Origin: a virus
IMG/VR virus record: IMGVR_UViG_3300042991_000159
Coordinates: 1-64,000 of that record
Reading direction: 5' to 3' (one strand)
Length of the DNA: 64,000 nucleotides
The notes below the pieces were generated by a model. The model did no database searches and was not told the origin of the DNA. It was given only the letters and a program-made list of their open reading frames with translations. Below, in pieces: positions 12,275 to 25,400 of the stretch; positions within the stretch are counted from its first letter, which is position 1; every line of letters begins with the position of its first letter. The translations under genes and the position numbers were made by a program.

Positions 12275-12580
12275 ATGGCAAACGCACTGGTAAAATTCTG
12301 GGAAAGTATCGAAAAAACAGGAGATGCTATTAAAGCTGCAAGATCAGCACGTTCAGTTCAACGTAAAGCTGAAATGGATGTATCAAAAGCATTCGATGAA
12401 CTTGAAGAAGTTAAAGGAAAGCTTGAAAAAGCTAAAATTGATGCTAAAAATAACGTGGAAACAGGTTTTAAAAATATATACGAAGCCTTTATGAGCGTTA
12501 AAGTTAAGCAACAACGCTTTAATGATGCAGTCACCGTTTATAAGGAACTTTTCGAAGAAGAACCAAAATTACTTTACTAA
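12275..12580 (+). CDS. Hypothetical helical protein
   Basis: Clean ORF with an A-rich initiation region. Confidence 0.7.
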   Translation: MANALVKFWESIEKTGDAIKAARSARSVQRKAEMDVSKAFDELEEVKGKLEKAKIDAKNNVETGFKNIYEAFMSVKVKQQRFNDAVTVYKELFEEEPKLLY

Positions 12581-12583
12581 TGT

Positions 12584-12614
12584 ATTGTATATTATACAAA
12601 AAGTATTATTTTTG
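12584..12614 (+). promoter_or_regulatory. Bacteroidota-type promoter P1 for tRNA block 1
   Basis: -7 element TATTTTTG (12607-12614) and -33-like TTG (12585-12587) with a 19-nt spacer. Confidence 0.65.
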
Positions 12615-12632
12615 TATAAGTAATTACACGTT

Positions 12633-12695
12633 ATGAAAGTTACAACATTACATTTGCTTCCAGAGGAACCGTCTAAACAGAGGGTACTGGAATAA
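12633..12695 (+). CDS. Attenuator leader peptide 1, MKVTTLHLLPEEPSKQRVLE
   Basis: Translated by hand; the run LHLLPEEP matches the downstream Pro/Glu/His/Leu/Leu tRNAs. Confidence 0.8.
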   Translation: MKVTTLHLLPEEPSKQRVLE

Positions 12696-12729
12696 TTGTG
12701 GCTTTGATAAAAAGCTGAATATAACGCAG

Positions 12730-12771
12730 GAACCCTCTTAGTAACACCGGACTAAGGGGGTTCTTTTTTTT
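12730..12771 (+). terminator. Attenuator terminator 1
   Basis: 13-bp stem GAACCCTCTTAGT/ACTAAGGGGGTTC plus T8, ending 2 nt before tRNA-Pro. Confidence 0.9.
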
Positions 12772-12773
12772 AT

Positions 12774-12846
12774 CGGAATGTAGCGCAGTTGGTAGCGTAC
12801 CTGCTTTGGGAGCAGGGGGTCGCAGGTTCGAATCCTGCTATTCCGA
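12774..12846 (+). tRNA. tRNA-Pro(TGG)
   Basis: Cloverleaf folded by hand; CCTGC-TT TGG GA-GCAGG. Confidence 0.95.
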
Positions 12847-12872
12847 CAAATGGCACTAAATAATTCCGTATT

Positions 12873-13010
12873 ATGGCAACAATTAAGACAAAATCAGAAA
12901 GAGTAAAACAAGGTAAGAGAAACCGAAAAGGAATCCATGCCAAAACTCGTAACAGTAAAATAAAAGGATCGAAACATTACGAGAAAGCGTACAAAGGTCA
13001 AGGACGTTAG
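12873..13010 (+). CDS. 45-aa basic protein ending YKGQGR
   Basis: Unannotated ORF MATIKTKSERVKQGKRNRKGIHAKTRNSKIKGSKHYEKAYKGQGR. Confidence 0.7.
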   Translation: MATIKTKSERVKQGKRNRKGIHAKTRNSKIKGSKHYEKAYKGQGR

Positions 13011-13030
13011 GTTAAACCTGATGTTATCAT

Positions 13031-13102
13031 GCCCCGTTCATCTAGTGGTTAGGATAGCAGATTTTCAGTCTGTTCACAAGAGTTCGATTCTCTTACGGGG
13101 TA
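13031..13102 (+). tRNA. tRNA-Glu(TTC)
   Basis: Cloverleaf; GCAGA-TT TTC AG-TCTGT. Confidence 0.9.
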
Positions 13103-13249
13103 CTATTTAACTTGATATGTACTTTCAGGAAAACCTTCTTGAATAGCAGCATTAAGTTCATTCTTAAATAAGTCATAATCAACTATTTTATTAGTTGTCG
13201 AACAACTTGTTAGAACGATTAATAAAAATATTATAGGTATCTTTCTCAT
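13103..13249 (-). CDS. 48-aa small lipoprotein
   Basis: MRKIPIIFLLIVLTS-C16-STTNKIVDYDLFKNELNAAIQEGFPESTYQVK: basic N-terminus, hydrophobic core, lipobox LTSC. Confidence 0.65.
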   Translation of the reverse strand: MRKIPIIFLLIVLTSCSTTNKIVDYDLFKNELNAAIQEGFPESTYQVK

Positions 13250-13314
13250 AAGGTAAAATTAATACACATATATTACAATATGATTAAGAAGAAATTAAGA
13301 TTGCAATAATATAT

Positions 13315-13386
13315 GGTGTTTGTAGCTCAACGGTAGAGTGCCTGATTGTGGATCAGGTGGTGACAGTTCGATCCTGTCCTTACACC
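13315..13386 (+). tRNA. tRNA-His(GTG)
   Basis: G-1:C73, CCTGA-TT GTG GA-TCAGG; two T-T mismatches in the acceptor stem. Confidence 0.9.
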
Positions 13387-13390
13387 CTAT

Positions 13391-13476
13391 GCTCCGGTGG
13401 TGAAATTGGCAGACGCACTGGACTTAAAATCCAGCGATCAGTAATGATCGTACCGGTTCGATTCCGGTTCGGAGTA
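13391..13476 (+). tRNA. tRNA-Leu(TAA)
   Basis: Long variable arm; CTGGA-CT TAA AA-TCCAG. Confidence 0.95.
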
Positions 13477-13495
13477 CTAACTAAAAATTTTTATT

Positions 13496-13951
13496 ATGAA
13501 AATAAACAAAAAGAAGGTAGTTGAACTATCAAGGGATTGGTTTAAAGCGTACCATTGTCCAGATCAGTTTTGGAATGATTTTGCAGAAAAGATTGACGAA
13601 ATTTACTCAGCAGGGGAAGAGGTGAGTGATGAAGAGGAGAGCGAAGAAGAGGGTAGAATTGCAACTGCCATTTTAGATGCCATTAATTCTGGACTGTGGA
13701 AATGGGAGTACAAGAAAAAATTATCACCCGATGATGCGTTTGACTTGCTTACCTGTTTGCAAGATCAAATCCTTAAGGTTAAACTCACCCGCCCTGCCAT
13801 ATCGGAGGAGGAGATAGATCAGTTGACAGAAGAGGTTATATGCGGATTAAAAGCAGGTGATAGAGTATTACCTGAGTTTTATTTCAGGCTCGGAATAGAA
13901 GCCATTAAGGAACTAACTAAAATTAAGCAAGATGAAAACAATAAAATTTGA
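13496..13951 (+). CDS. Hypothetical protein
   Basis: ORF track; no motif. Confidence 0.6.
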   Translation: MKINKKKVVELSRDWFKAYHCPDQFWNDFAEKIDEIYSAGEEVSDEEESEEEGRIATAILDAINSGLWKWEYKKKLSPDDAFDLLTCLQDQILKVKLTRPAISEEEIDQLTEEVICGLKAGDRVLPEFYFRLGIEAIKELTKIKQDENNKI

Positions 13952-14153
13952 AATCGTAAAGGAAATTGAACCAAGTGGTAAAGTATGGTTTCATGTAAGA
14001 ATGAATGGAAGTCATCAAACGGCTAATAGAAGCTATGAGGAAGCTAAAAGAAGTTTGGAAACCTGTAAAACGAATGTGGTTAAATGGGGATATGAAAAGT
14101 ATGAAGAGGTTATTTTTTCAGAATTAGTTGACACATAAAGCCATTAAGGAACT
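13899..14153 (+). repeat. 16-bp direct repeat AAGCCATTAAGGAACT flanking a small ORF
   Basis: Copies at 13899-13914 and 14138-14153. Confidence 0.8.
13932..14138 (+). CDS. Hypothetical protein
   Basis: ORF lying between the direct repeats. Confidence 0.6.
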   Translation: MKTIKFEIVKEIEPSGKVWFHVRMNGSHQTANRSYEEAKRSLETCKTNVVKWGYEKYEEVIFSELVDT

Positions 14154-14276
14154 TAACAGATAAGAGAAGGAAATATTGCATAGATAGTTGAATAAAATAA
14201 GAATAAGTGTGCAATTATTTACTATTTTAATAAGAGCCAAAACACGGAATAAAACAACGCCAAAATACGGAACTAT

Positions 14277-14375
14277 ATGGAAAACACAGACGCAATAATA
14301 TTAATAGGTGGATTTTTATATCTATTATTTTTTGTATGGATGCCTTCAAGTTATGACGATAGAAGAGAAAAATGA
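14277..14375 (+). CDS. 32-aa single-pass membrane peptide
   Basis: MENTDAIILIGGFLYLLFFVWMPSSYDDRREK; ATGA overlap with the next ORF. Confidence 0.5.
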   Translation: MENTDAIILIGGFLYLLFFVWMPSSYDDRREK

Positions 14376-14893
14376 TTAATTGGATAAAATGGAAACAGTT
14401 GATAGCTGGACATACAGCTAAATTAAAAATAAGAATAGTTGTTTCTTACATATCTGTTGGTGATGGTAATGGTGATTTAGCATATAATACATGTAGAGAA
14501 ATCATTGATCGAAATGAAAAAGGTGCATTTGCACACATGGCTCTTGAAGAAGTATTCAGATATCTTGAAAAAGGTTGGAGATGGCCTGATTATATGAATG
14601 ATATAATCCATTCAGGAATGCATAAACAAACAGATATGACTCAAGACCCTTGGATACTTGCATATTGTTGCGCTGTACACCTAGATCGCTATGACCTAAT
14701 AGAGAGATATAGACCTAACTTCTGGTTGTTTCTGCCCGACAAGTGGGCTTGGAGAAGATCACTACTTGGAAAGGTAAACTTCTATTGGCTATGGCGAAGA
14801 ATAACACCTTACAAATGGATGCAACATTTTGTTTATGTATTTTATGGATACATGGAGCTTGCATATAAGAATAAAGTTGTACCTTTACATTGA
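14372..14893 (+). CDS. Hypothetical Trp-rich protein
   Basis: ORF track. Confidence 0.6.
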   Translation: MINWIKWKQLIAGHTAKLKIRIVVSYISVGDGNGDLAYNTCREIIDRNEKGAFAHMALEEVFRYLEKGWRWPDYMNDIIHSGMHKQTDMTQDPWILAYCCAVHLDRYDLIERYRPNFWLFLPDKWAWRRSLLGKVNFYWLWRRITPYKWMQHFVYVFYGYMELAYKNKVVPLH

Positions 14894-14919
14894 ATTTTAA
14901 CCGTTAAAATTATATAAGC

Positions 14920-15369
14920 ATGAAGAAAGTAACAAACGTTTTTAAAGTATTTTTATCGTTAGTTTTACTAATGGTGGTAGGAATTGTAGCATTTGGTCAA
15001 ACAACTGTTCCAACTATTCCAGATTGGACCGACCTCTATGAAAACTACGGTGTATATTTTGCTACTGCTGGTGGAATTGCTGGTATTGCAATGTTCTTAG
15101 GTGAACTCGTAATTCGAGTATTGAAGCTAGCTGTAAAATGGCAAAAAGTAGCTATAATTTGGGTACTATCAGTTGTGGCATCATTTGTAGGTGCATTTGT
15201 GCTCAACGTAGGTTATTTAGCAGAAGCAACATGGTGGGAAACTGTTATATGGGGAGTTTTCTCAGGATTGTTAGCTAATGGTATATGGTCTAGTAACGTA
15301 GCGTTCATTAAATCAATTCTTGAATTTCTCGTTGAGCTTATCAAAGCTAAAATTCCTGCAACAGTATAA
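14920..15369 (+). CDS. Multi-pass membrane protein, holin-like
   Basis: Signal-like N-terminus (AFG/Q), three further hydrophobic helices, GLLANG motif. Confidence 0.55.
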   Translation: MKKVTNVFKVFLSLVLLMVVGIVAFGQTTVPTIPDWTDLYENYGVYFATAGGIAGIAMFLGELVIRVLKLAVKWQKVAIIWVLSVVASFVGAFVLNVGYLAEATWWETVIWGVFSGLLANGIWSSNVAFIKSILEFLVELIKAKIPATV

Positions 15370-15399
15370 AAACTTTAGGGGTGAAATGCCCCCTTTTAC

Positions 15400-15481
15400 G
15401 CTCTTGTGGGGGAATTGGCAGACCCGCTAGTCTTAGGAACTAGTGTCGAAAGGCGTGTCAGTTCGAGTCTGACCGAGAGTA
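15400..15481 (+). tRNA. tRNA-Leu(TAG)
   Basis: Long variable arm; CTAGT-CT TAG GA-ACTAG. Confidence 0.95.
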
Positions 15482-15517
15482 TGATTTTAAATGTTAACAT
15501 TAAAAAAACAATCAGTT

Positions 15518-15697
15518 ATGAACGCAAGAAAATCAGCAGTGTTATTTGCACTTGGAATTGTATGGTTAGGTGCTGTTATATGGGGTTTTGCTCATGGAGT
15601 ACAACAAACTGAAGTTGGTGCTAAAATCGCTTGGATTGGTGGATCATTAGTATTTACAGCTTTAGGTGTATTTCTTTCTTACAAATTGAAAAAATAA
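15518..15697 (+). CDS. Small two-helix membrane protein
   Basis: MNARKSAVLFALG...; two hydrophobic segments; ATG at 15518 preferred over 15491. Confidence 0.65.
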   Translation: MNARKSAVLFALGIVWLGAVIWGFAHGVQQTEVGAKIAWIGGSLVFTALGVFLSYKLKK

Positions 15698-15715
15698 AGT
15701 ATATACAAAGAAAAA

Positions 15716-15746
15716 TTTGTTTTTCTCGAAAAAGGAGTTAAATTTG
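15716..15746 (+). promoter_or_regulatory. Bacteroidota-type promoter P2 for tRNA block 2
   Basis: Consensus match: TTTG (15716-15719), 19-nt spacer, TAAATTTG (15739-15746). Confidence 0.8.
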
Positions 15747-15770
15747 TATTGTACTTAAATTTTTAACACA

Positions 15771-15848
15771 ATGTTAGTTCGATTTAGATATACGAAATAT
15801 TCAAGTTGCAAGGGCACATCCTCTGCAAGATGGGACTTCTATATCTAA
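15771..15848 (+). CDS. Attenuator leader peptide 2, MLVRFRYTKYSSCKGTSSARWDFYI
   Basis: Translated by hand; the 15-codon run RFRYTKYSSCKGTSS matches all ten downstream tRNAs. Confidence 0.85.
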   Translation: MLVRFRYTKYSSCKGTSSARWDFYI

Positions 15849-15893
15849 CTAAAAGAAAATTTTTTATTTTTCATTGTTCAGATTTTGTGATCT

Positions 15894-15925
15894 AAGTCCC
15901 ATTCTTAAACGAGTGGGACTTTTTT
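15894..15925 (+). terminator. Attenuator terminator 2
   Basis: 11-bp stem AAGTCCCATTC/GAGTGGGACTT plus T tract, ending 3 nt before tRNA-Thr. Confidence 0.9.
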
Positions 15926-15928
15926 ATT

Positions 15929-16001
15929 GCCACTGTAGCTCAGTTGGTAGAGCTGTTCACTTGTAATGAACGGGTCGGGGGTTCGATTCCTCTCGGTGGC
16001 T
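15929..16001 (+). tRNA. tRNA-Thr(TGT)
   Basis: Cloverleaf; GTTCA-CT TGT AA-TGAAC. Confidence 0.95.
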
Positions 16002-16029
16002 CAAGTTTAACTTAAAATTCTTTGACGTT

Positions 16030-16524
16030 ATGGCAGTATATTTTATAAATAGTAATGGTATGCATATTAGTAGATCAACGATAGGTCTTATTGATAGTAA
16101 TCAATATAATGTGCAAGTTGGTATTTTACATGGTCCTAACGAAGGATATAAACTTTCGTTTGATGGAGAGATAATTAGAGAACAATTACCATTAAACGAA
16201 TTTATAGTAAGATTAATCGAGGGAGAAACGATTGATAAAAATGGTCCAGAAATACATCGTGATATTCAAACTGTAATTAATGCTTTAAATCGTGGAAAAA
16301 AAGAAGAGATAGAAGCAGTAGCTAGATGGTTAGATCATAGATATTCTAATTTAATAAGAAACGGGAAAATAATATTAATGCAGCATACTTATCGACATTC
16401 TTATTATAGTGAAAGTATTGGTAGCAGAGAGAGGTCTATTCAACAGTCTCAACCTATGACAACAGATGAAGCATATCAAAAATCAGTAACAGATGATGAA
16501 GTCTATTACACAATGATTAAATAA
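16030..16524 (+). CDS. Hypothetical protein
   Basis: ORF track. Confidence 0.65.
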   Translation: MAVYFINSNGMHISRSTIGLIDSNQYNVQVGILHGPNEGYKLSFDGEIIREQLPLNEFIVRLIEGETIDKNGPEIHRDIQTVINALNRGKKEEIEAVARWLDHRYSNLIRNGKIILMQHTYRHSYYSESIGSRERSIQQSQPMTTDEAYQKSVTDDEVYYTMIK

Positions 16525-16525
16525 C

Positions 16526-16599
16526 GCCTCTATAACTCAGTTGGCTAGAGTACCACCCTTTTAAGGTGGGAGTCCTGCGTTCAAGTCGCAGTGGGGGTA
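16526..16599 (+). tRNA. tRNA-Lys(TTT)
   Basis: CCACC-CT TTT AA-GGTGG. Confidence 0.95.
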
Positions 16600-16602
16600 C
16601 AA

Positions 16603-16668
16603 TTAATGACTAATATATTAGTCATTAAGTACCAAAATAAGGCTTAATGACTAATATATTAATCATTA
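16603..16668. repeat. Tandem palindromes
   Basis: Perfect 26-bp palindrome TTAATGACTAATATATTAGTCATTAA (16603-16628) and a near copy at 16644-16668. Confidence 0.85.
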
Positions 16669-16669
16669 T

Positions 16670-16743
16670 ACACACGTAGTTCAACTGGATAGAATAGGTG
16701 GCTACGGACCATCTGGTTGTGGGTTCGAGTCCTACCGTGTGTA
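16670..16743 (+). tRNA. tRNA-Arg(ACG)
   Basis: GGTGG-CT ACG GA-CCATC. Confidence 0.95.
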
Positions 16744-16759
16744 CTAAAAATTAAAAATT

Positions 16760-16891
16760 ATGATACGTAAAATTAGAAAATATATCTACGATAAAAATGA
16801 AGTTAGAAAAATAGCTGGTACTTTTAATCCTTATATTCCATATGAGAAGAGAAAAATAATGGCTATGAGATATTTAGAAATGCATAAATAA
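16760..16891 (+). CDS. 43-aa basic hypothetical protein
   Basis: MIRKIRKYIYDKNEVRKIAGTFNPYIPYEKRKIMAMRYLEMHK fills the gap between two tRNAs. Confidence 0.5.
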   Translation: MIRKIRKYIYDKNEVRKIAGTFNPYIPYEKRKIMAMRYLEMHK

Positions 16892-16892
16892 T

Positions 16893-16965
16893 GGAGCAGT
16901 AGCTCAGTCGGTAGAGCACCAGACTGAAAATCTGGGTGTCGGCAGTTCAATTCTGTCCTGTTCCA
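16893..16965 (+). tRNA. tRNA-Phe(GAA)
   Basis: CCAGA-CT GAA AA-TCTGG. Confidence 0.95.
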
Positions 16966-17037
16966 CATTTAAGAAGTAGTGCAGTTTCGTAGTGGCGGGT
17001 TCTGCGCTCGAAAGAGAACCAAAAAACCCATACCCAT

Positions 17038-17111
17038 GCGGGTTTAGCTCAATTTGGCAGAGCGTCTGCCTTCCAAGCAGAGGGTTGAGAGTTCGAGTCT
17101 CTTGATCCGCA
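17038..17111 (+). tRNA. tRNA-Gly(TCC)
   Basis: TCTGC-CT TCC AA-GCAGA. Confidence 0.95.
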
Positions 17112-17113
17112 CT

Positions 17114-17273
17114 AAAGTATCACTATCAGCATAGGGATTGCCCTAATGTTCTGAGAGAGTGAACGGTTTGGGATTTTGTAAAAAGAATCACTTATTAAGG
17201 CTCTTCTGAGACATTCAAGGAACTCGTAATGTAGTCTTCGGGGAAAGCGGTAGGACTCCGTAAGTGATACTTT
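17114..17273 (+). ncRNA. Unidentified structured RNA (about 160 nt)
   Basis: 11-bp closing stem AAAGTATCACT/AGTGATACTTT with internal hairpins; GC-richer than its surroundings; lies between two tRNAs. Confidence 0.55.
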
Positions 17274-17285
17274 TTAAAATATAAT

Positions 17286-17369
17286 GGGTCGGTGGCTGAG
17301 TGGTTAAAGGCGTTGGACTGTAAATCCAATCGTGTCATGCGTTCGGGGGTTCGAATCCCTCCCTGCCCA
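17286..17369 (+). tRNA. tRNA-Tyr(GTA)
   Basis: Long variable arm; TTGGA-CT GTA AA-TCCAA. Confidence 0.95.
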
Positions 17370-17373
17370 CAAT

Positions 17374-17444
17374 GGTTCTATGTCCGAGTGGCTAGGTCAC
17401 TGTCTGCAAAACAGTTTACACTGGTTCGAGTCCAGTTAGAACCT
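17374..17444 (+). tRNA. tRNA-Cys(GCA)
   Basis: ACTGT-CT GCA AA-ACAGT; U73 discriminator. Confidence 0.95.
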
Positions 17445-17463
17445 CTAACTAAAAATAAGAAAT

Positions 17464-17682
17464 ATGAATTTATACATGGTAGAATTTGACACTACAACTT
17501 ATATAGTCGTGGCAAAAGATGAAGAAGATTTACTTGATCTCTTACACAAAAGAGATTCTGGTTTCCAAAAAGAAGTAGATAGAGGTATTGTTTATATGTG
17601 GGATTTAAGAACTATAGACCCTGTTGAAGTAACTGTTATAAACCAAGATAAACCAAAAATAGTATTTGTCGTATCCCATTAA
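17464..17682 (+). CDS. Hypothetical protein
   Basis: ORF between tRNAs. Confidence 0.65.
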   Translation: MNLYMVEFDTTTYIVVAKDEEDLLDLLHKRDSGFQKEVDRGIVYMWDLRTIDPVEVTVINQDKPKIVFVVSH

Positions 17683-17688
17683 AGTATT

Positions 17689-17772
17689 GGAAGTAATCTG
17701 GCTGGATGAAGGACTGCTCTTGAAAAGCAGTAATACAGTGATGTATTGTGGGTTCGAGTCCTACTGCTTCCG
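17689..17772 (+). tRNA. tRNA-Ser(TGA)
   Basis: Long variable arm, G73; CTGCT-CT TGA AA-AGCAG. Confidence 0.9.
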
Positions 17773-17777
17773 CATAT

Positions 17778-17854
17778 GCATCTGTAGCTCAGTTGGACAG
17801 AGCAACGCCCTTCTAAGGCGTGGGTCAACCGTTCGAATCGGTTCAGGTGTACCA
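17778..17854 (+). tRNA. tRNA-Arg(TCT), encoded CCA
   Basis: ACGCC-CT TCT AA-GGCGT. Confidence 0.95.
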
Positions 17855-17856
17855 CT

Positions 17857-17940
17857 GGAAGTATTCTCCTAAATGGTAAAGGTCCACCCTGCTAAGGTGG
17901 TGTCATTCGTGGCATATAGGTTCGATTCCTGTTACTTCCG
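17857..17940 (+). tRNA. tRNA-Ser(GCT)
   Basis: Long variable arm; CCACC-CT GCT AA-GGTGG; atypical D arm. Confidence 0.9.
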
Positions 17941-17972
17941 CTAACTAAATTATTAATTTAAGAGAGAAAAAA

Positions 17973-18662
17973 ATGAAAACATCAGTAAACATGATTCGTA
18001 AGATAGGTATGTTCGAAATCGAACAACGAACTTTCGATGGATATTTTGAAGCAAATATGTTACTTCAACAATGGAATAGAGTTAAACAGAATACACCAAA
18101 AAAAATAGTTGAATTTCTAAGAAATGAAAAAACAATTGAGTTTATTAAACAAATTAAGAAAGAAGAAGGTATTTATAACTCATTGATACACAGTAGGGGA
18201 GAAAAATCACCAACTGATAATCAAGTAGTTATAATAATCAAAGGAAGAAGAACAAAAAAAGGTCCAACACCAGATCGTGTATTTATGCATCCTTATTTAT
18301 TTGTTGATTTTGCAATGTGGTTAAATCCTAAATTCAAATATCATGTAATTAAATTTGTTTACGATTCGTTAATGGATTATAGAAATAATGCAGGAGATTT
18401 ATATAAAGGACTTTCTCAATCTGTCAGTACACTTACAAATATAAGTTACGCTAGAGTAGGCAAAGGTTTGAATTTCATTGTATTTGGTGAGCATAAAAAA
18501 GGAATTCGTAATACTGGAACAGTTGAACAATTACAGGAACTTAACGATATTCAAAAACAATTAGCGTTTAGTATTGAAATGGGACTTATCACTTCTTTTA
18601 AAGAATTAATGGATACCATGATAAAAATATATAGAAAAAAGCAAAAATTTAATTTATTTTGA
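17973..18662 (+). CDS. KilA-N domain DNA-binding protein
   Basis: QRTFDGYFEAN.LL and MHPYLFVDFAMWLNPKF motifs. Confidence 0.85.
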   Translation: MKTSVNMIRKIGMFEIEQRTFDGYFEANMLLQQWNRVKQNTPKKIVEFLRNEKTIEFIKQIKKEEGIYNSLIHSRGEKSPTDNQVVIIIKGRRTKKGPTPDRVFMHPYLFVDFAMWLNPKFKYHVIKFVYDSLMDYRNNAGDLYKGLSQSVSTLTNISYARVGKGLNFIVFGEHKKGIRNTGTVEQLQELNDIQKQLAFSIEMGLITSFKELMDTMIKIYRKKQKFNLF

Positions 18663-18670
18663 TAACTTTG
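18663..18670 (+). promoter_or_regulatory. Bacteroidota-type -7 promoter element P3 for tRNA block 3
   Basis: TAACTTTG matches TAnnTTTG; no clear -33 element. Confidence 0.55.
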
Positions 18671-18692
18671 TCTTATAATATTTCAAACTTTA

Positions 18693-18797
18693 ATGATCAT
18701 GGCAAAGAAATCAGGTAATAAATCGGCTCCCAAAGATAAAGGAATGGGACAAGGTAAAAAAGGTTCTGGTAAAAAAGGATCATGCAAAAGAAAATAA
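18693..18797 (+). CDS. 34-aa Lys/Gly-rich basic peptide
   Basis: MIMAKKSGNKSAPKDKGMGQGKKGSGKKGSCKRK; stop is 1 nt before leader 3. Confidence 0.6.
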   Translation: MIMAKKSGNKSAPKDKGMGQGKKGSGKKGSCKRK

Positions 18798-18798
18798 A

Positions 18799-18879
18799 AT
18801 GATGAAAACATTAGTTATTAATATATGGAACCAAATTGATGTGGATCAGGCGATCTACAATCAGGGAACTATGTATTAA
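18799..18879 (+). CDS. Attenuator leader peptide 3, MMKTLVINIWNQIDVDQAIYNQGTMY
   Basis: Translated by hand; the 14-codon run VINIWNQIDVDQAI matches all eight downstream tRNAs. Confidence 0.85.
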   Translation: MMKTLVINIWNQIDVDQAIYNQGTMY

Positions 18880-18906
18880 AAAAACCTTTTGAACTATTCA
18901 ACATAG

Positions 18907-18938
18907 AACCCTGATTCCCCTAAGAGTCAGGGTTTTTT
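18907..18938 (+). terminator. Attenuator terminator 3
   Basis: 11-bp stem AACCCTGATTC/GAGTCAGGGTT plus T tract, ending 3 nt before tRNA-Val. Confidence 0.9.
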
Positions 18939-18941
18939 ATT

Positions 18942-19016
18942 GCTTCTTTAACTCAGTTGGTTCAGAGTGCAATTTTTACAAGATTGAAGTCGGTGGTTCG
19001 AATCCATCAAGAAGCA
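18942..19016 (+). tRNA. tRNA-Val(TAC)
   Basis: CAATT-TT TAC AA-GATTG. Confidence 0.9.
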
Positions 19017-19094
19017 CTATCGCATAGAGGTTTGCATGATGTGGAGTCTTCCTCTCGTTAAACAAAAAAATGGTTACAGGGATGTGGCCGCCAC

Positions 19095-19167
19095 GGGGAT
19101 TTAGCTCAGTTGGAAGAGCACTTGATTTGCACTCAAGAGGTCATCGGTTCGACTCCGTTAATCTCCA
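19095..19167 (+). tRNA. tRNA-Ala(TGC)
   Basis: G3:U70 identity pair; CTTGA-TT TGC AC-TCAAG. Confidence 0.95.
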
Positions 19168-19212
19168 CTAAGTAATGTTCATTGACGTATTGTTTAATTA
19201 AAATTATTTTAT

Positions 19213-19626
19213 ATGGTAGAAAAATTAAAAGTCTACACTGCTGGTGGATTTCATGGTGATTGGAGAGAACGAATAAACAAAATTCTTGCAGAGAAATTTA
19301 TTGTTCTTGATCCTTTCAGTAAGGAATTTGATTCTTCTAAAGGTGAACGTAAACATTTATCATATGAGGAATATACAGTTTGGGATTTATGGGCAATTAG
19401 AACAGCAGATATAGTATTTGTATACTCTCAACGTACTAATCCCGGTCAAGGTTATATAGTTGAAGCTGGATATGCTAAAGGACTTGGTAAAACTGTTATT
19501 CTTGTAAGAGAAGAAAACAATGAACATATGCCTGACAAATATCTGAATTTTATTGATTGTGTAGCAGATTTTGTTTGCCACGATTTCAATGAAGGTGTTG
19601 AGTTTCTTACCAGACTTTCACTTTAA
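19213..19626 (+). CDS. Nucleoside 2-deoxyribosyltransferase-like protein
   Basis: VYTAGG, DLWAIRTADIV and G...EAGYAKGLGK motifs. Confidence 0.8.
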   Translation: MVEKLKVYTAGGFHGDWRERINKILAEKFIVLDPFSKEFDSSKGERKHLSYEEYTVWDLWAIRTADIVFVYSQRTNPGQGYIVEAGYAKGLGKTVILVREENNEHMPDKYLNFIDCVADFVCHDFNEGVEFLTRLSL

Positions 19627-19634
19627 AAGAATAA

Positions 19635-19708
19635 TGCCTTGTAGCTCAGTCGGTTAGAGCAGTGGACTGTTAATCCAAAGGTCGTAAGTTCAAGTCTTAC
19701 CGAGGCAG
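19635..19708 (+). tRNA. tRNA-Asn(GTT)
   Basis: GTGGA-CT GTT AA-TCCAA; G73. Confidence 0.95.
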
Positions 19709-19710
19709 CT

Positions 19711-19827
19711 ACTCTCTATATCTCGGATCACGCCCTGAAATGGGAACCGTGGCTGGTATCCACTATAAACTACTACCGGAACAAGTGATTGGATAACTTT
19801 ACGTTTGCGGGATTTGATATAGAGAGT
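19711..19827 (+). ncRNA. Unidentified structured RNA (about 117 nt)
   Basis: 12-bp closing stem ACTCTCTATATC/GATATAGAGAGT; exactly fills the spacer between two tRNAs. Confidence 0.55.
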
Positions 19828-19832
19828 TTTAT

Positions 19833-19906
19833 TGACCCTTAGCACAGATGGTTAGTGCAATTCGCTCATAACGAAAAGGTCGTGTGTTCGATTCACACAG
19901 GGTCAA
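19833..19906 (+). tRNA. tRNA with CAT anticodon (Ile2/lysidine-type or elongator Met)
   Basis: ATTCG-CT CAT AA-CGAAA; paired 1:72. Confidence 0.9.
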
Positions 19907-19951
19907 CAATTTTTCGTATCTTGTAAGCTTAACCAAGTAAAATTTTAAATC

Positions 19952-20755
19952 ATGTGTTTTAAAAACTTATTTAATAGACCTGAGAAACCAGAATTACATC
20001 CTGCAAGACGAGCATTATTATTTGGAATAAACGATTATCCCGGTAGTAGCAGTGATCTAAATGGTTGCGTTAACGATGTTTATGACGTTAAAGAAAAATT
20101 AGATTCTCTTTATCCAGATTTTGTAACAAAAATGTTTACGGATGTAAATGCTACAATATCTACTTTTGAATACGAACTTGCAAAAGAAATTGAAAAACTT
20201 CAAGCAGGAGATGTTTTATTAGTTCATTATTCTGGTCACGGTACTTATGTAACTGATAAGAGTGGTGATGAAGAGGATGGATACGATGAAGCTCTTTATC
20301 TTTATGACGGACCATTAATTGACGATGATATTCGTGGTATGCTAGAAGGTATTCCAGATGGTGCAACGGTAGTACTCATATTTGATTGCTGTTATTCTGG
20401 TACAATTAGCAGATCGGTGTTACCCAAGATAGAAAAAAACCGATTTTACCCAAATCCTGTTAGTAAAAAAAGTACTGGTTCTTTAAAAATAAGAAACAGA
20501 TTTGCGAAAGGTGATAATATGAGATGGATAACATTCTCAGGGTCAGATGAACATCAGACAAGTGCAGATGCTTATATTGATGGAAAATATAATGGAGCAT
20601 TTACATATTTCTTATTAAAATATCTTAAACCGGGAATTACTTATAAACAATGGGCAAACTATGTAAGCGAAGCCTTTGAAAATTCTCGTTTTGAACAAAG
20701 ACCTCAAATAGAAGGACCGGAAGGATTATTAAATAACTTAATATTTTACATTTAA
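19952..20755 (+). CDS. Caspase-like cysteine protease (peptidase C14, metacaspase-type)
   Basis: ALLFGINDY, LNGCVND, HYSGHG and FDCCYSG dyad motifs, QTSADA, GAFT, QRPQ. Confidence 0.92.
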   Translation: MCFKNLFNRPEKPELHPARRALLFGINDYPGSSSDLNGCVNDVYDVKEKLDSLYPDFVTKMFTDVNATISTFEYELAKEIEKLQAGDVLLVHYSGHGTYVTDKSGDEEDGYDEALYLYDGPLIDDDIRGMLEGIPDGATVVLIFDCCYSGTISRSVLPKIEKNRFYPNPVSKKSTGSLKIRNRFAKGDNMRWITFSGSDEHQTSADAYIDGKYNGAFTYFLLKYLKPGITYKQWANYVSEAFENSRFEQRPQIEGPEGLLNNLIFYI

Positions 20756-20764
20756 TATAATATT

Positions 20765-21217
20765 ATGAGAATAATAAAAAGAATTGATCCTTTTTTAAAG
20801 AATGTAGATATAGATAAACTACTTTCAAAATGGTTTCCAGAAATGGAAGAGGATAAAAAAAGAAACATTAAGAGTGAAATATTTAAAAATATTCATTCGA
20901 TTAGAACATTTTGGTATGATAATCCTGATCTTAGATTTTCTCAAGTGCTAATTAATAGTAATTTGATTCCTAATTATCCTGGGATGTGGTACTACTATGA
21001 AGAAGATGAAATCCTTATAGATCAAGGACATGAACTAAGAGATATACTCTTTTGGGGAAGAAATTACAATAAGGAAATGGAACGTCTTCCAAGGACAGAA
21101 TGGATTTTAATCAAGGACATGAGTACTGATCATATTCAGGCTGTCTTAGACGGTGAATTTACCACACACTCAGATTATTTAAAAGCATTTAATGACGAAT
21201 TAGAAAGAAGAAAATAA
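20765..21217 (+). CDS. Hypothetical phage protein
   Basis: W..NPDLRFSQ and IKDMSTDHI motifs recur in phage hypotheticals. Confidence 0.7.
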   Translation: MRIIKRIDPFLKNVDIDKLLSKWFPEMEEDKKRNIKSEIFKNIHSIRTFWYDNPDLRFSQVLINSNLIPNYPGMWYYYEEDEILIDQGHELRDILFWGRNYNKEMERLPRTEWILIKDMSTDHIQAVLDGEFTTHSDYLKAFNDELERRK

Positions 21218-21224
21218 TAATTAC

Positions 21225-21297
21225 TGGTGTGTAGTTCAGTTGGTAGAATAGTGCTCTCCAAAAGCAAAGGTCGGGAGTTCGAGTCTCTCCATGCCAG
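21225..21297 (+). tRNA. tRNA-Trp(CCA)
   Basis: GTGCT-CT CCA AA-AGCAA. Confidence 0.95.
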
Positions 21298-21304
21298 CAA
21301 ATAT

Positions 21305-21377
21305 AGCCTCTAGGTCAAACGGTTAAGATGTCAGCCTGTCACGCTGTACGGAGCGGGTTCAACTCCCGTAGGGGCTG
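21305..21377 (+). tRNA. tRNA-Asp(GTC)
   Basis: TCAGC-CT GTC AC-GCTGT; G73. Confidence 0.9.
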
Positions 21378-21429
21378 CTATATTTAAAAACATATAATTA
21401 GCATCAAATATGTTATTTTATATGCAAAT

Positions 21430-21503
21430 GCTCATGTAACTCAGTTGGTTAGAGAGCCTCTCTGATAAGGAGGAAGTCGGTAGTTCAAATCTATCCATGA
21501 GCA
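21430..21503 (+). tRNA. tRNA-Ile(GAT)
   Basis: CCTCT-CT GAT AA-GGAGG. Confidence 0.95.
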
Positions 21504-21517
21504 CTATTTAAAAAGTA

Positions 21518-21583
21518 AAGGGAAGATCGGTCCGATTCCGAAGCAGAGTAATCTGTACTAGTGTAATGGCTATGCACACCCTT
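21518..21583 (+). ncRNA. Circularly permuted tRNA-like element (T arm, capped acceptor stem, D arm)
   Basis: AAGGG, TCGG-TCCGATT-CCGA, GCAGA-GTAA-TCTGT, TA-GTGT-AATGGCTAT-GCAC-A, CCCTT. Confidence 0.55.
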
Positions 21584-21588
21584 GTCAT

Positions 21589-21662
21589 TGACTCATGGTG
21601 TAACAGGTTAACACGTGGCACTTTGGATGCTAAGAGTCTCCGTTCGAGTCGGAGTGAGTCAA
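21589..21662 (+). tRNA. tRNA-Gln(TTG)
   Basis: U1:A72; TGGCA-CT TTG GA-TGCTA. Confidence 0.95.
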
Positions 21663-21686
21663 CTATATTAACTAAAAACAAAATGT

Positions 21687-22214
21687 ATGAAAGTATTACG
21701 TCTTATTTTGACGAGAAAATGTAATCGTAGTTGTGAGAGATGTTGCAACAAACAAGACGCTTTTGTTGAAAACCGTGTTCCTAATATTCTTGAACTTGGT
21801 TATAATTTTAGTGATTTTGATACAATTATTCTTACAGGTGGTGAACCATTGCTTGAATTTGACTCTCTTAAATTAACGATAGCTTTAATTAGAAAAGTTA
21901 GTCCAGATTCAAAGATTATTGTGTACACAGCGAATGTTCAAATGAAAGATGAAATCATTGAACTACTATATCTTGTAGATGGAATTACTGTAACAGTACA
22001 CGAACAAGAAGATGTTGATGATTTTAATCGCCTAAACTTTTGGATGCTTCGATTGAAGCGTTACAAAATAGATAATAATAAAACTTTGCGACTTAATATA
22101 TTTAAAGGTGTTAAAATATATATGCAAAACTCAAGTCTCTGGAAGATAAAAGATAACATAGAATGGATCGAAGATTGTCCATTGCCAGAGAACGAAATAA
22201 TTGCACAATATTAA
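21687..22214 (+). CDS. Minimal radical SAM protein
   Basis: CNRSCERC (CxxxCxxC) and LTGGEP. Confidence 0.85.
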   Translation: MKVLRLILTRKCNRSCERCCNKQDAFVENRVPNILELGYNFSDFDTIILTGGEPLLEFDSLKLTIALIRKVSPDSKIIVYTANVQMKDEIIELLYLVDGITVTVHEQEDVDDFNRLNFWMLRLKRYKIDNNKTLRLNIFKGVKIYMQNSSLWKIKDNIEWIEDCPLPENEIIAQY

Positions 22215-22222
22215 CATTTTTA

Positions 22223-22253
22223 TTGTGTATATTAATTTAAAGTGTTAGATTTG
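22223..22253 (+). promoter_or_regulatory. Bacteroidota-type promoter for the last tRNA
   Basis: TTG (22223-22225), 20-nt spacer, TAGATTTG (22246-22253). Confidence 0.6.
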
Positions 22254-22264
22254 TTAATGTATAT

Positions 22265-22338
22265 TGCGAGTTGGCGCAGATGGTCAGCGCACAAGATTCA
22301 TGATCTTGGGGTCACGGGTTCGAGTCCCGTACTCGCTA
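22265..22338 (+). tRNA. tRNA-Met(CAT), initiator-like
   Basis: T1.T72 mismatch, TGCGAG acceptor; CAAGA-TT CAT GA-TCTTG. Confidence 0.9.
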
Positions 22339-22417
22339 CAAAACTTATTATTTGGTTCATAGCAATAATGTTTTAGGTTAGTGATTATTTGGTTAAGTGA
22401 GAGTAGTGAGAATGAAG

Positions 22418-22445
22418 AAGGAGAGCTGGTTGGCTCTCCTTTTTT
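22418..22445. terminator. Terminator between convergent transcription units
   Basis: AAGGAGAGCT/GGCTCTCCTT stem plus T tract. Confidence 0.85.
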
Positions 22446-22473
22446 ATTTCCCTTACGAAAAAATTTACCGTTA

Positions 22474-25400
22474 TTATTTCTTGTAAACTTGATCAGCAGC
22501 ACTTTGTAATTTTTGATACTGAACCGGTCCCGGTATAAGTTTCTGGATGTCTCTCCAAGTACGACTCTTACCTTTGCTCGGACCACTCTGAAGTATATCT
22601 CCTTCTGCTCCTTCTGTAATCAGAGTCATAGCAGAATCTATAGCTTTAGCAGCATCTACTACAACTGAGAAAGCAGGAATAGCATTACGTGCAAGACGTT
22701 CAAATTCAATTGGATTGATATAGAATTGTACATCAGTAGCGAGTCTTCCTATTTGATTAATCATGAATATGTAAGCCATCTTCTTTTTTGAATTTTTATC
22801 ATCATCATCGTCTACTGCTGCTTTCAGAGCAAGTGTTAGACCTGTAAGTAATAGGAATATAAAAATTTCAGTCATGTTTTTACGCATATTAGCAGCATCG
22901 GTTTCAGTAAAACCTTCACCTATTAAATCATCAAATTTTGTATTAAATCCTACAAGTTTACGTAAAAGTTGATACGTAAGATTAAATGTACTACTTATTG
23001 CATTCATATTATTTTCAGCAGTATAATAAGCAACATAACTACGATAACGACCTTTTCTATTAAGAAAATTTTCACCTGTTTTTTGATTAATCAGTTGATA
23101 ATCATCAAATTCAGCACGAAATCTTTCTGCAAATCCCTGATAAGCCCATGTACGAAATTGACTCAAAGCACGACCAATAAATTTACGTTTTACAAGTAGA
23201 GGAGAATCAGGATCATAGTTACCATGATTCATTTTAACAAGTTTATCAATACGTCGTTTAAGTTCAAAAATTTTCTTTTCATCAATAGTAACTCCGTCTT
23301 TAAGGTTGCCGTCGGTTTCATAGGCATCCCATAAACTAATTTCTTTACCGTCTGCTGTTGTAACTTTTTCTTCCATCATCATAGCAATCATCACAGGAGC
23401 CTGATTAAAGTATTCCGAACGTGATTGCGGAGAAAAAGGATTAGCCCATTCAAGCCCTTTACCTACTCTCTTGAACATACTTGGTGTAGTGTCTTTATAT
23501 ATTTCATTACGTGCCTCTTTAAGAGTATCAAACTTGTTCATAAGTTCTCTAATCTTTTTTGCATTACCGTTAAGACCGTTCCATGTATTAAATGAGTAGT
23601 TACGTCCAACAGAATTTAATACAAGAGCTTGAGCCTTCCAAAAATTCTTACTTGAGTAATTACGTCCGTCTGAAGCTTCTATTACGTTAGACATAATACC
23701 AAATCCCATATTAGCAAAAGCAGCAAAAACGTTCCAACCCATACCTTTAAGTTGGATATATTTAAGAAGAATATCACCATATTTAGATGCAATTTTTACA
23801 CCACCCAGTACGTCGAGTTGTTCTCGAACAACTTCAGACCTAGCATCGTAAGTATCTTGATCTATTTTTTCTTTCTCTAAAAGACTGTCAAGTTCTTTTA
23901 AACTATTTTCTAAGAGCGTTTTGAGTTCCTTCTCTTTCTCAGTAAGAATCTTTTTCTTGCTTGCACCTTCTGGTCTATTAGAGGGATAATGCCAATAAGC
24001 TACTTCCATAAAGTTGTCAAGCATTTTTCTTAAATTTTCTAATCCTTTTTCAGTAATTAGATTTTTGTGTTTATCTCTAACATCTTGACCAGAAGCGTTT
24101 GTTCTTTTTTCAAGACCACGACGAATAATATCATCTGCAATACGCATTTGATCTTCGATAGCTGCACGATGATTATATCCAATAGCCATAGCAGAAAAAG
24201 CCTTCATAATACGTCCAAGATCAAAAGATTTTTCTTGAGCGAGTTCATTCAAGTAATCTTTTCTCCATTTATCTACAAGCTCTGTATCAGGACTTTTACC
24301 GTTATTCTCAGCTCTATAACTTGTATCTTTTAATTCAAGATAGTTTTTTAATTTTTGACGATTATTTGTGAGATGCTGGAATTGAAAATCTTTTCTATCT
24401 TCGGGAGTAGCAGTTGTTCCAAGATCATCTGCTCTAACTGCTTTTCTGAGATCATCTTTACTTTTACTAAATCCTGCTAATAGACCGTTTTCTGTTATTA
24501 CTTCAGATAGTTTTTGATCTAAAATAGGAATAGAGTTCATCTGCATAAAAGATATTTTTTCGTGAGGAAGATATAGTTTCATGATTTTCATCAGATCAAA
24601 CATAAAATTATATAATTCCAAATAACTCTTATTGTTTTGAATTTGTTGGAATTTCTGATCATGAAATCCTGTATCTTCTCCATCAGCAATTTTTTTAGGA
24701 ACAGAACGTACATACTTATTAGTAGGATTAATATGAAGTCCATTAGGTCTTACATTATCAAATCCTTTTTCCATAGCTTCTGCATACAAGAAAGGAGAAT
24801 TTCTTATTTCCCATCCTTCAATATAACTTTCTATAATAGCTACATTTTCTCCATATTCACCTTCCGCTATTTTTCTACGTGATTCTCTATCAATCTTATA
24901 ATCTCTAATTTTCTTTTCATTAATATCATAATATTCTTTATAACCGTCTTCTCCAAGTAATTCTTTTAGTTCGGCTATATGAACCTCTTTTTGTGCTTGA
25001 GTAGGTTCAGGAGCATTAGTAAGTTCTGCATCCCAGAATAGAATACGTGGGTCGAATACAGTAGTAAATTTTTGCTGTTCCCCCATAAATTTTCTATTAG
25101 CCCTTTTAATTATTTCAAAAGCAGCTCTATCATCTGTTTGTTTATAAGCAGAAGCAAAAGCACGATCTCTTTCATTTCTTATTTTGGATTGCCAATCAAA
25201 AAATGATTGAGTCCAACGAAACACCATTTCTCCTGTTAAGCGTGAATCATCATTACTTTGAGTCTGCCTAAAAATATCAAAGTTTTTTAAACCGGTAGCT
25301 TTTATAAGACTATCTAATTTAGCAAACACTTGGTCTGTTTCTAATTTAGCAGCATAATTTGCATCTTTCACCCAAGCGTGCATTGCTTGGAGAAGAATAT

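Follow-up and report, generated by a model that had tools for sequence, protein, structure and literature searches.

Candidate leader-peptide attenuators upstream of the tRNA genes of an uncultured, putatively crAss-like phage

Among the leader-peptide attenuators of enterobacteria, which include trpL, hisL, leuL and pheL, several are multivalent, such as thrL (Thr, Ile) and the leader of ilvGMEDA (Ile, Leu, Val). In E. coli, a leader-peptide attenuator also controls pheST, encoding phenylalanyl-tRNA synthetase, and thereby places feedback on the supply of one aminoacyl-tRNA. T-box riboswitches bind uncharged tRNA directly via a specifier codon, and they need neither a ribosome nor an ORF. Why phages carry tRNA genes, and by what means these are regulated, is still an open question; current ideas are compensation for codon usage and escape from tRNA-cleaving defences. 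The trn operon of Anabaena sp. PCC 7120, a 26-gene tRNA array, is induced under translational stress (PMC8421152; PMC10272220) and is repressed at its promoter by the protein TrcR (PMC10272220). The terms 'leader peptide' and 'attenuat' are absent from the TrcR paper (PMC10272220), and in full-text literature on phages, tRNA arrays or operons and attenuation we found no description of tRNA genes under leader-peptide control; one article (PMC3082878) makes just a brief mention of a tRNA operon. The Anabaena array is the nearest published case that we found.

In this study, we analysed the first 64 kb (the window) of a 99,795-bp viral record that is rated complete. Upstream of an operon of ten tRNA genes in this window lies a leader that we read, with a probability of about 0.8, as a multivalent, ribosome-mediated (leader-peptide) transcription attenuator of the trp/his style. 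A preliminary description of this DNA had proposed the same reading, and the codon match, the alternative helices, the agreement of the modelled stall window with the codon run, and the covariation of antiterminator and terminator in a relative all speak for it.

The tRNA island and its three leaders

We treated the source as an uncultured crAss-like phage whose host is probably a member of the Bacteroidota, on the strength of RNA-polymerase-like matches, Bacteroidota-type promoter-like motifs and the binning of one distant relative. A 1338-aa protein adjoining the tRNA island gave only weak matches, to crAss-like phage genes annotated as RNA-polymerase subunits. When it was searched by tblastn, only 25-29% matches to crAss-like phages were obtained; a comparison of the region with 50,697 phage records by megablast and blastn returned nothing, or generic tRNA matches only. 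The sole distant relative from a scan of genome contigs was a homologue of 32% identity on contig L083 (CBDUPT010000009.1), which has no tRNAs of interest and is binned with an uncultured Flavobacteriales genome; this bin points, though weakly, to the group of the host.

The island (12774-22339) contains 24 tRNA genes, every one on the plus strand according to both ARAGORN and Rfam, and these form a complete minimal decoding set that covers 20/20 amino acids. Each four-codon box has one U34 tRNA, with the exception of Arg (ACG), each two-codon box has one tRNA, and two tRNAs carry the CAU anticodon. Only three strong plus-strand terminators were found between 11.5 and 23.5 kb; each ends a few nucleotides before the first tRNA of a block and is preceded by a small ORF:

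12728-12765, plus strand: terminator before tRNA-Pro (scan)
15894-15921, plus strand: terminator before tRNA-Thr (scan)
18905-18936, plus strand: terminator before tRNA-Val (scan)

The blocks were set by these terminators rather than picked post hoc. They split the 20 amino acids 4/8/8, and no amino acid is found in more than one block. Because each terminator stands just before the first tRNA of its block, read-through is the only route of transcription from upstream. The middle block and its leader comprise the following features:

15716-15746, plus strand: promoter-like site of the Bacteroidota type, TTTG-N19-TAAATTTG, 24 nt before the ATG (consensus match)
15771-15848, plus strand: leader ORF (leader 2), ATG at 15771, 25 codons plus a stop at 15846-15848, peptide MLVRFRYTKYSSCKGTSSARWDFYI (ORF list)
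15780-15824, plus strand: putative regulatory run of 15 consecutive codons, only R, F, Y, T, K, S, C and G, peptide RFRYTKYSSCKGTSS (codon comparison)
15784-15848, plus strand: protector (1:2) hairpin, with outer helix 15784-15796/15837-15848 and inner hairpin 15806-15828 (minimum-energy fold)
15829-15838, plus strand: region 2, the predicted 5' strand of the antiterminator, pairing with 15894-15903 (stall model, covariation)
15894-15925, plus strand: intrinsic terminator, an 11-bp GC-rich stem (15894-15904/15911-15921) with a 6-nt loop and six T's at 15920-25 (scan, fold)
15929-17941, plus strand: block 2, the proposed regulated unit, ten tRNA genes and three small interspersed ORFs (ARAGORN, ORF list, Rfam)

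The tRNA genes of block 2 are, in order, Thr(tgt), Lys(ttt), Arg(acg), Phe(gaa), Gly(tcc), Tyr(gta), Cys(gca), Ser(tga), Arg(tct) and Ser(gct). Inside the block (15929-17941), neither a plus-strand TAnnTTTG motif nor a terminator was detected. Two structured stretches were observed in its spacers. Between tRNA-Lys and tRNA-Arg, two near-identical palindromic units (TTAATGACTAATATATTAGTCATTAA-like; 16600-16670) fold as one long hairpin (-28.1 kcal/mol, z = -9.6), a possible processing site. In the 173-nt spacer between tRNA-Gly and tRNA-Tyr (17113-17285), an 11-bp stem (AAGUAUCACU.../...AGUGAUACUU) closes several inner hairpins (z = -2.0), and no Rfam match was obtained for this spacer.

The hallmark parts of an attenuator are all present in leader 2: a function-linked codon cluster, an interposed terminator, an antiterminator and a protector helix. 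Within region 2, ATGGGACTT (15830-15838) is perfectly complementary to AAGTCCCAT (15894-15902) in the 5' arm of the terminator, and a G-U pair extends this helix to 10 bp. The U-tract of the terminator ends 3 nt before tRNA-Thr, the first gene of block 2, and terminated transcripts would therefore carry no tRNA. The ORF, the 15-codon run, the nine-nucleotide complement and the terminator had each been put forward in the preliminary description, and all were recovered. The competing helix (15784-15796/15837-15848) and the inner TTGCA/TGCAA hairpin that it had named as the protector state were both found in the minimum-energy fold (z = -4.8).

For the promoter that had been placed 24 nt upstream of the ATG, the outcome was mixed. 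The consensus match stands, and 15716-15746 is the sole plus-strand match to TTTG-N17-21-TAnnTTTG in the window; moreover, each of the three leaders has a plus-strand TAnnTTTG upstream (at 12607, 15739 and 18663). This class of motif is not enriched across the window, so that 15716-15746 is to be taken as a consensus match only, and no promoter-like motif was seen in the sequence inspected upstream of the corresponding leader of a related contig (L047). We consequently hold the promoter assignment to be weaker than the attenuator reading. Plus-strand TAnnTTTG motifs were also observed at 19800-19807 and 22246-22253, which is 25 and 11 nt upstream of the two tRNA-Met(CAU) genes at 19833 and 22265; these two genes may also be transcribed independently of the third attenuator, or the motifs could be there by chance.

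Units of the same design precede the other two blocks:

12607-12771, plus strand: putative attenuator 1, with TATTTTTG motif, leader 1 MKVTTLHLLPEEPSKQRVLE, run LHLLPEEP and terminator 12728-12765 (scan, ORF list, fold)
18663-18941, plus strand: putative attenuator 3, with TAACTTTG motif, leader 3 MMKTLVINIWNQIDVDQAIYNQGTMY at 18799-18879, run VINIWNQIDVDQAI and terminator 18905-18936 (scan, ORF list, fold)

The former lies before tRNAs Pro, Glu, His, Leu-UAA and, further on, Leu-UAG, and the latter before tRNAs Val, Ala, Asn, Met, Trp, Asp, Ile, Gln and Met. The three leader peptides are unrelated to one another, and the design is identical. A 34-codon ORF rich in Lys, Gly and Ser (MIMAKKSGNKSAPKDKGMGQGKKGSGKKGSCKRK; 18693-18797) separates the TAACTTTG motif from leader 3. 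This ORF is absent from the related contigs L047 and L054, where the ATG of leader 3 follows a TACCTTTG motif by 7 nt, a distance that suggests a leaderless mRNA in these two relatives.

Codon match, folding and the stalled-ribosome model

The 15 codons at 15780-15824 (CGA TTT AGA TAT ACG AAA TAT TCA AGT TGC AAG GGC ACA TCC TCT) encode no amino acids other than the eight that the ten tRNAs downstream carry, and all eight are represented. When each leader was compared with each block in a three-by-three matrix, leaders 1, 2 and 3 each matched their own block only; taken together, the three runs cover 20/20 amino acids. Each leader opens with two to four codons that belong to other blocks. The chance of such matches was computed from six-frame residue frequencies, as the probability of a run of the observed length covering the whole amino-acid set, with 150 start positions allowed per terminator. 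The probability per position was 1.0e-6, 4.4e-7 and 7.6e-9 for leaders 1, 2 and 3, respectively, which corresponds to per-site values of 1.5e-4, 6.5e-5 and 1.1e-6 and a joint value of about 1e-14. Over the roughly 128,000 six-frame positions of the window, 1, 2 and 1 runs, leaders included, were found with the properties of the runs of leaders 1, 2 and 3, respectively. For leader 2 these properties were at least 15 block-2 residues with all 8 amino acids, and leader 2 is one of the two such runs. When all runs of the respective kind across the six frames of the window were ranked by length, the leader runs came first, second and fifth.

The preliminary description had also proposed that the sensor is tuned to tRNA species rather than to amino acids. 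It is correct that the run includes both Arg boxes (CGA, AGA) and both Ser boxes (TCA/TCC/TCT, AGT), in keeping with the two Arg and two Ser tRNAs of the block; the run of leader 1 likewise samples both Leu boxes. Given the codon usage of the phage, the chance of sampling both Arg boxes and both Ser boxes is 0.43 x 0.78, or about 0.34, and box coverage thus does not establish the isoacceptor claim. Moreover, GGC and TCC are unreadable by anticodons UCC and UGA under standard wobble, and four-way wobble of the U34 tRNAs would be required. The related leader in contig L047 keeps CGA, AGA, AGT and TCN, with AGA and AGT at positions other than in the window. Fourteen of the 15 codons of run 2 are distinct (P = 0.054 by synonymous resampling), and codon diversity lay above that of synonymous resampling at P = 0.07, 0.05 and 0.06 for leaders 1, 2 and 3 (Fisher 0.010). 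The runs are also biased towards rare synonymous codons (P = 0.0065 for leader 2 and P = 0.0008 for all three), for example CGA, ACG, GGC and TCC, which account for 7%, 6%, 2% and 4% of their families, respectively; part of this bias may come from the G+C demand of the helices. Tuning at the isoacceptor or codon level is thus plausible and weakly supported.

All three leader regions are predicted to fold more stably than shuffled sequences (z = -4.7 to -5.5). For leader 2, the predicted energies of the protector (-18.9 kcal/mol), the antiterminator domain (-16.4 kcal/mol) and the terminator (-16.2 kcal/mol) are nearly equal and would suit a kinetic switch. Against this reading, the antiterminator has to close a loop of 55 nt. 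Equilibrium folding with the RNA under the ribosome masked was tried as a test and was dropped, as it kept the terminator in every case and attenuation is kinetic. Since the terminator is always favoured at equilibrium, the proposed switch must be kinetic and needs coupling of ribosome and polymerase, and on this model such coupling must operate in the presumed Bacteroidota host.

Stalling was modelled by folding the leader without region 4, that is, with the 3' arm of the terminator not yet made; the edge of the ribosome footprint was set at the first A-site base +13 nt, which is an assumed parameter. In this model, the antiterminator of leader 2 formed for A-site stalls up to 15816, was weaker at 15819 and was lost from 15822, where TCT is the last codon of the run. 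Before region 3 exists, the 5' strand of the protector held region 2 only when the stall lay upstream of about 15789. Antiterminator loss from 15822 and protector release at about 15789 together place the range of productive stalling inside the cognate run, which ends where a stalled ribosome would, in the model, start to cover region 2. In 8/8 leader instances (three in the window and five in relatives), the antiterminator was lost once stalls reached the end of the run, and in all 7 instances in which release of the protector was modelled, it fell inside the run.

Conservation and covariation in relatives

The 1338-aa protein has many metagenomic homologues, and a profile scan of metagenome contigs yielded five contigs with the same tRNA order (L047, L049, L052, L054 and L055), in which this protein is 49-64% identical (63% in L047). 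Orthologues were at hand for leader 2 in one contig (L047) and for leader 3 in four (L047, L049, L054 and L055), and for leader 1 in none. Contig L047 has the same ten block-2 tRNAs in the same order, preceded by a leader, MKTRFGYRYSSSTCKGKTYARQDSYTQ, with 18 consecutive in-block codons. By manual count, its run and that of the window differ by seven replacements and one insertion, all of which stay within the block. Past the run, the peptides of both mix in-block and out-of-block residues, and about half of the residues of the leader 2 peptide are conserved between the two.

The helices of leader 2 have also been maintained. In L047, 10/10 pairs of the antiterminator are kept, three of them through two-sided compensatory changes, whereas slid controls paired at 25-55%. 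All pairs of the terminator are kept as well (11/11, two via compensatory changes), which brings the antiterminator and terminator to five compensatory pair changes in total, and the protector keeps 8/9 outer pairs, of which one shows a compensatory change. Joint changes of regions 2, 3 and 4 between the window and L047 occurred at two positions, a pattern that a plain terminator would not require. Since the one orthologue of leader 2 that was analysed is homologous, its conservation does not amount to an independent invention.

In the four orthologues of leader 3, the in-block run is kept, the antiterminator duplex is predicted at -14 to -19 kcal/mol in all, compared with -6 to -7 for shuffles, and changes are compensated, for example as CAGAGG/CCTCTG in L054. 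Relatives in IMG/VR were more distant (at most 49% identity, with 0-3 tRNAs), and inspection by eye found no leader or terminator upstream of their tRNAs. Exact-pattern scans of viral contigs yielded neither a leader resembling leader 2 nor a continuation of contig L049. As a negative control, we inspected the tRNA island of the cultured, T4-like Aeromonas phage 65, in which gaps of about 240 nt precede tRNA groups; no matching leader ORF and no terminator was found in these gaps, and thus the design is neither general to phage tRNA arrays nor an artefact of the search approach. One gap of this phage (contig L084, 6117-6358; 242 nt from tRNA-Asn to tRNA-Lys), which is annotated as empty, contains GGTTCGAATCC-type T-arm motifs that may mark unannotated or degenerate tRNA-like genes.

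Proposed mechanism, alternatives and comparison with known systems

From the anatomy, the codon match, the alternative helices, the covariation and the conservation, all of which were computed, we infer that the leader is translated, that stalling alters read-through and that slow decoding of its codons is the physiological trigger. Host RNA polymerase would initiate at or upstream of the TAAATTTG site, and a ribosome would translate the 25-codon leader. If the run at 15780-15824 were decoded fast, the ribosome at the end of the ORF would cover region 2 (15829-38), the terminator (15894-15921) would fold and transcription would stop 3 nt before tRNA-Thr. If charged tRNA for R, F, Y, T, K, S, C or G were scarce, the ribosome would wait in the run and mask the 5' strand of the protector; region 2, thus freed, would pair with the 5' arm of the terminator, and polymerase would read into the ten tRNA genes. 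In the case that no translation takes place, the protector would hold region 2 and the terminator would form. The expected outcome is negative feedback, in which each block would be made when, and only while, its own codons decode slowly; the phage thus probably makes the block-2 tRNAs only on slow decoding of the leader codons.

That the match arose by coincidence, with an unselected open frame rich in block amino acids happening to lie before an ordinary terminator, can draw on the composition of the DNA: the amino acids of block 2 account for 42-45% of residues, and five other runs of at least 15 occur in the six frames of the window. We nevertheless consider it exceedingly improbable, since the per-site and joint chances given above (6.5e-5 for leader 2) are so small, the unit is conserved with covariation in relatives, and the range of productive stalling coincides with the run. 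It is also very unlikely that the ORF serves to make a conserved micropeptide with an independent function, with the hairpins acting as elements of processing or stability or as a constitutive terminator and the tRNAs being made by leaky read-through. The partial conservation of the leader 2 peptide fits this idea, and a hairpin adjoining the 5' end of a tRNA could affect processing by RNase P. However, the property that has been conserved is membership in the block and not the sequence, as all seven replacements and the insertion attest; region 2 covaries with the 5' arm of the terminator, for which a plain terminator or a processing hairpin would have no need; and the same design recurs three times with three unrelated peptides.

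An attenuator that is real but reports the general state of the host, namely amino-acid starvation or translation capacity, and so acts as a timing switch for the whole island, is an unlikely though more serious alternative. Leader-peptide attenuators sense charged tRNA, so that a missing tRNA and a missing amino acid are indistinguishable to them, as established for trp and his; the three leaders jointly cover all 20 amino acids, hence a general slowdown would open all three; and the first codons of each leader are those of other blocks. On the other hand, a general sensor would not need codons partitioned such that each leader fits its own block only, nor replacements confined to the block over evolution, and amino-acid starvation would not be relieved by making tRNA.

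More tentatively, and with doubt outweighing confidence, the three attenuators of the preferred reading could together provide codon-resolved surveillance of the host tRNA pool, as a sensor-and-repair loop against tRNA-targeting immunity. Depletion of one tRNA by a host defence nuclease or by phage shut-off would then stall the ribosome in the matching leader and turn on the block that replaces it; the rare and diverse codons, and the sampling of both Arg, Ser and Leu boxes, would reflect isoacceptor or codon tuning. If the attenuator reading is true, the phage gauges how fast each codon is decoded and supplies tRNAs as they are needed, the leaders are compact natural sensors of the availability of individual tRNAs, and attenuation by coupled ribosome and polymerase takes place in the hosts of crAss-like phages, presumably Bacteroidota.

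A cmscan of 12400-22600 at E <= 1 gave no match to a leader or T-box family. Besides tRNAs, it returned only weak chance matches far below threshold, such as SpF19_sRNA over terminator 1 (12708-12774, E 0.18), and leaders 2 and 3 had no Rfam match over them.

In anatomy the units are of the trp/his type. They share with the enterobacterial amino-acid leaders a short leader ORF, regulatory codons in a run, 1:2, 2:3 and 3:4 helices that exclude one another and a terminator before the genes; in the enterobacterial leaders the position of the ribosome picks the terminator or the antiterminator, as it would in the phage units. Unlike those leaders, which control biosynthetic enzymes, the phage units would control tRNA genes; they are phage-encoded, and three of them divide up the 20 amino acids. 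Closest appear to be the multivalent leaders of thr and ilv, although these sense two or three amino acids whereas leader 2 lists eight (ten tRNA species), and, if true, the sensing of eight lies far above that number. The T-box riboswitches likewise choose between terminator and antiterminator in response to the state of a specific tRNA, but they do so free of ribosome and ORF. The Anabaena trn operon resembles the phage units, as read here, in being an accessory tRNA array that is off until translation is impaired, and it differs in relying on a promoter repressor, in not being codon-specific and in not being viral. By target, the closest system appears to be pheST, in which leader-peptide attenuation also acts on a gene of the translation apparatus, but a cellular one that encodes a synthetase, with a single amino acid sensed. 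We class the phage units as a known, textbook mechanism applied to a putative new class of target, the tRNA genes.
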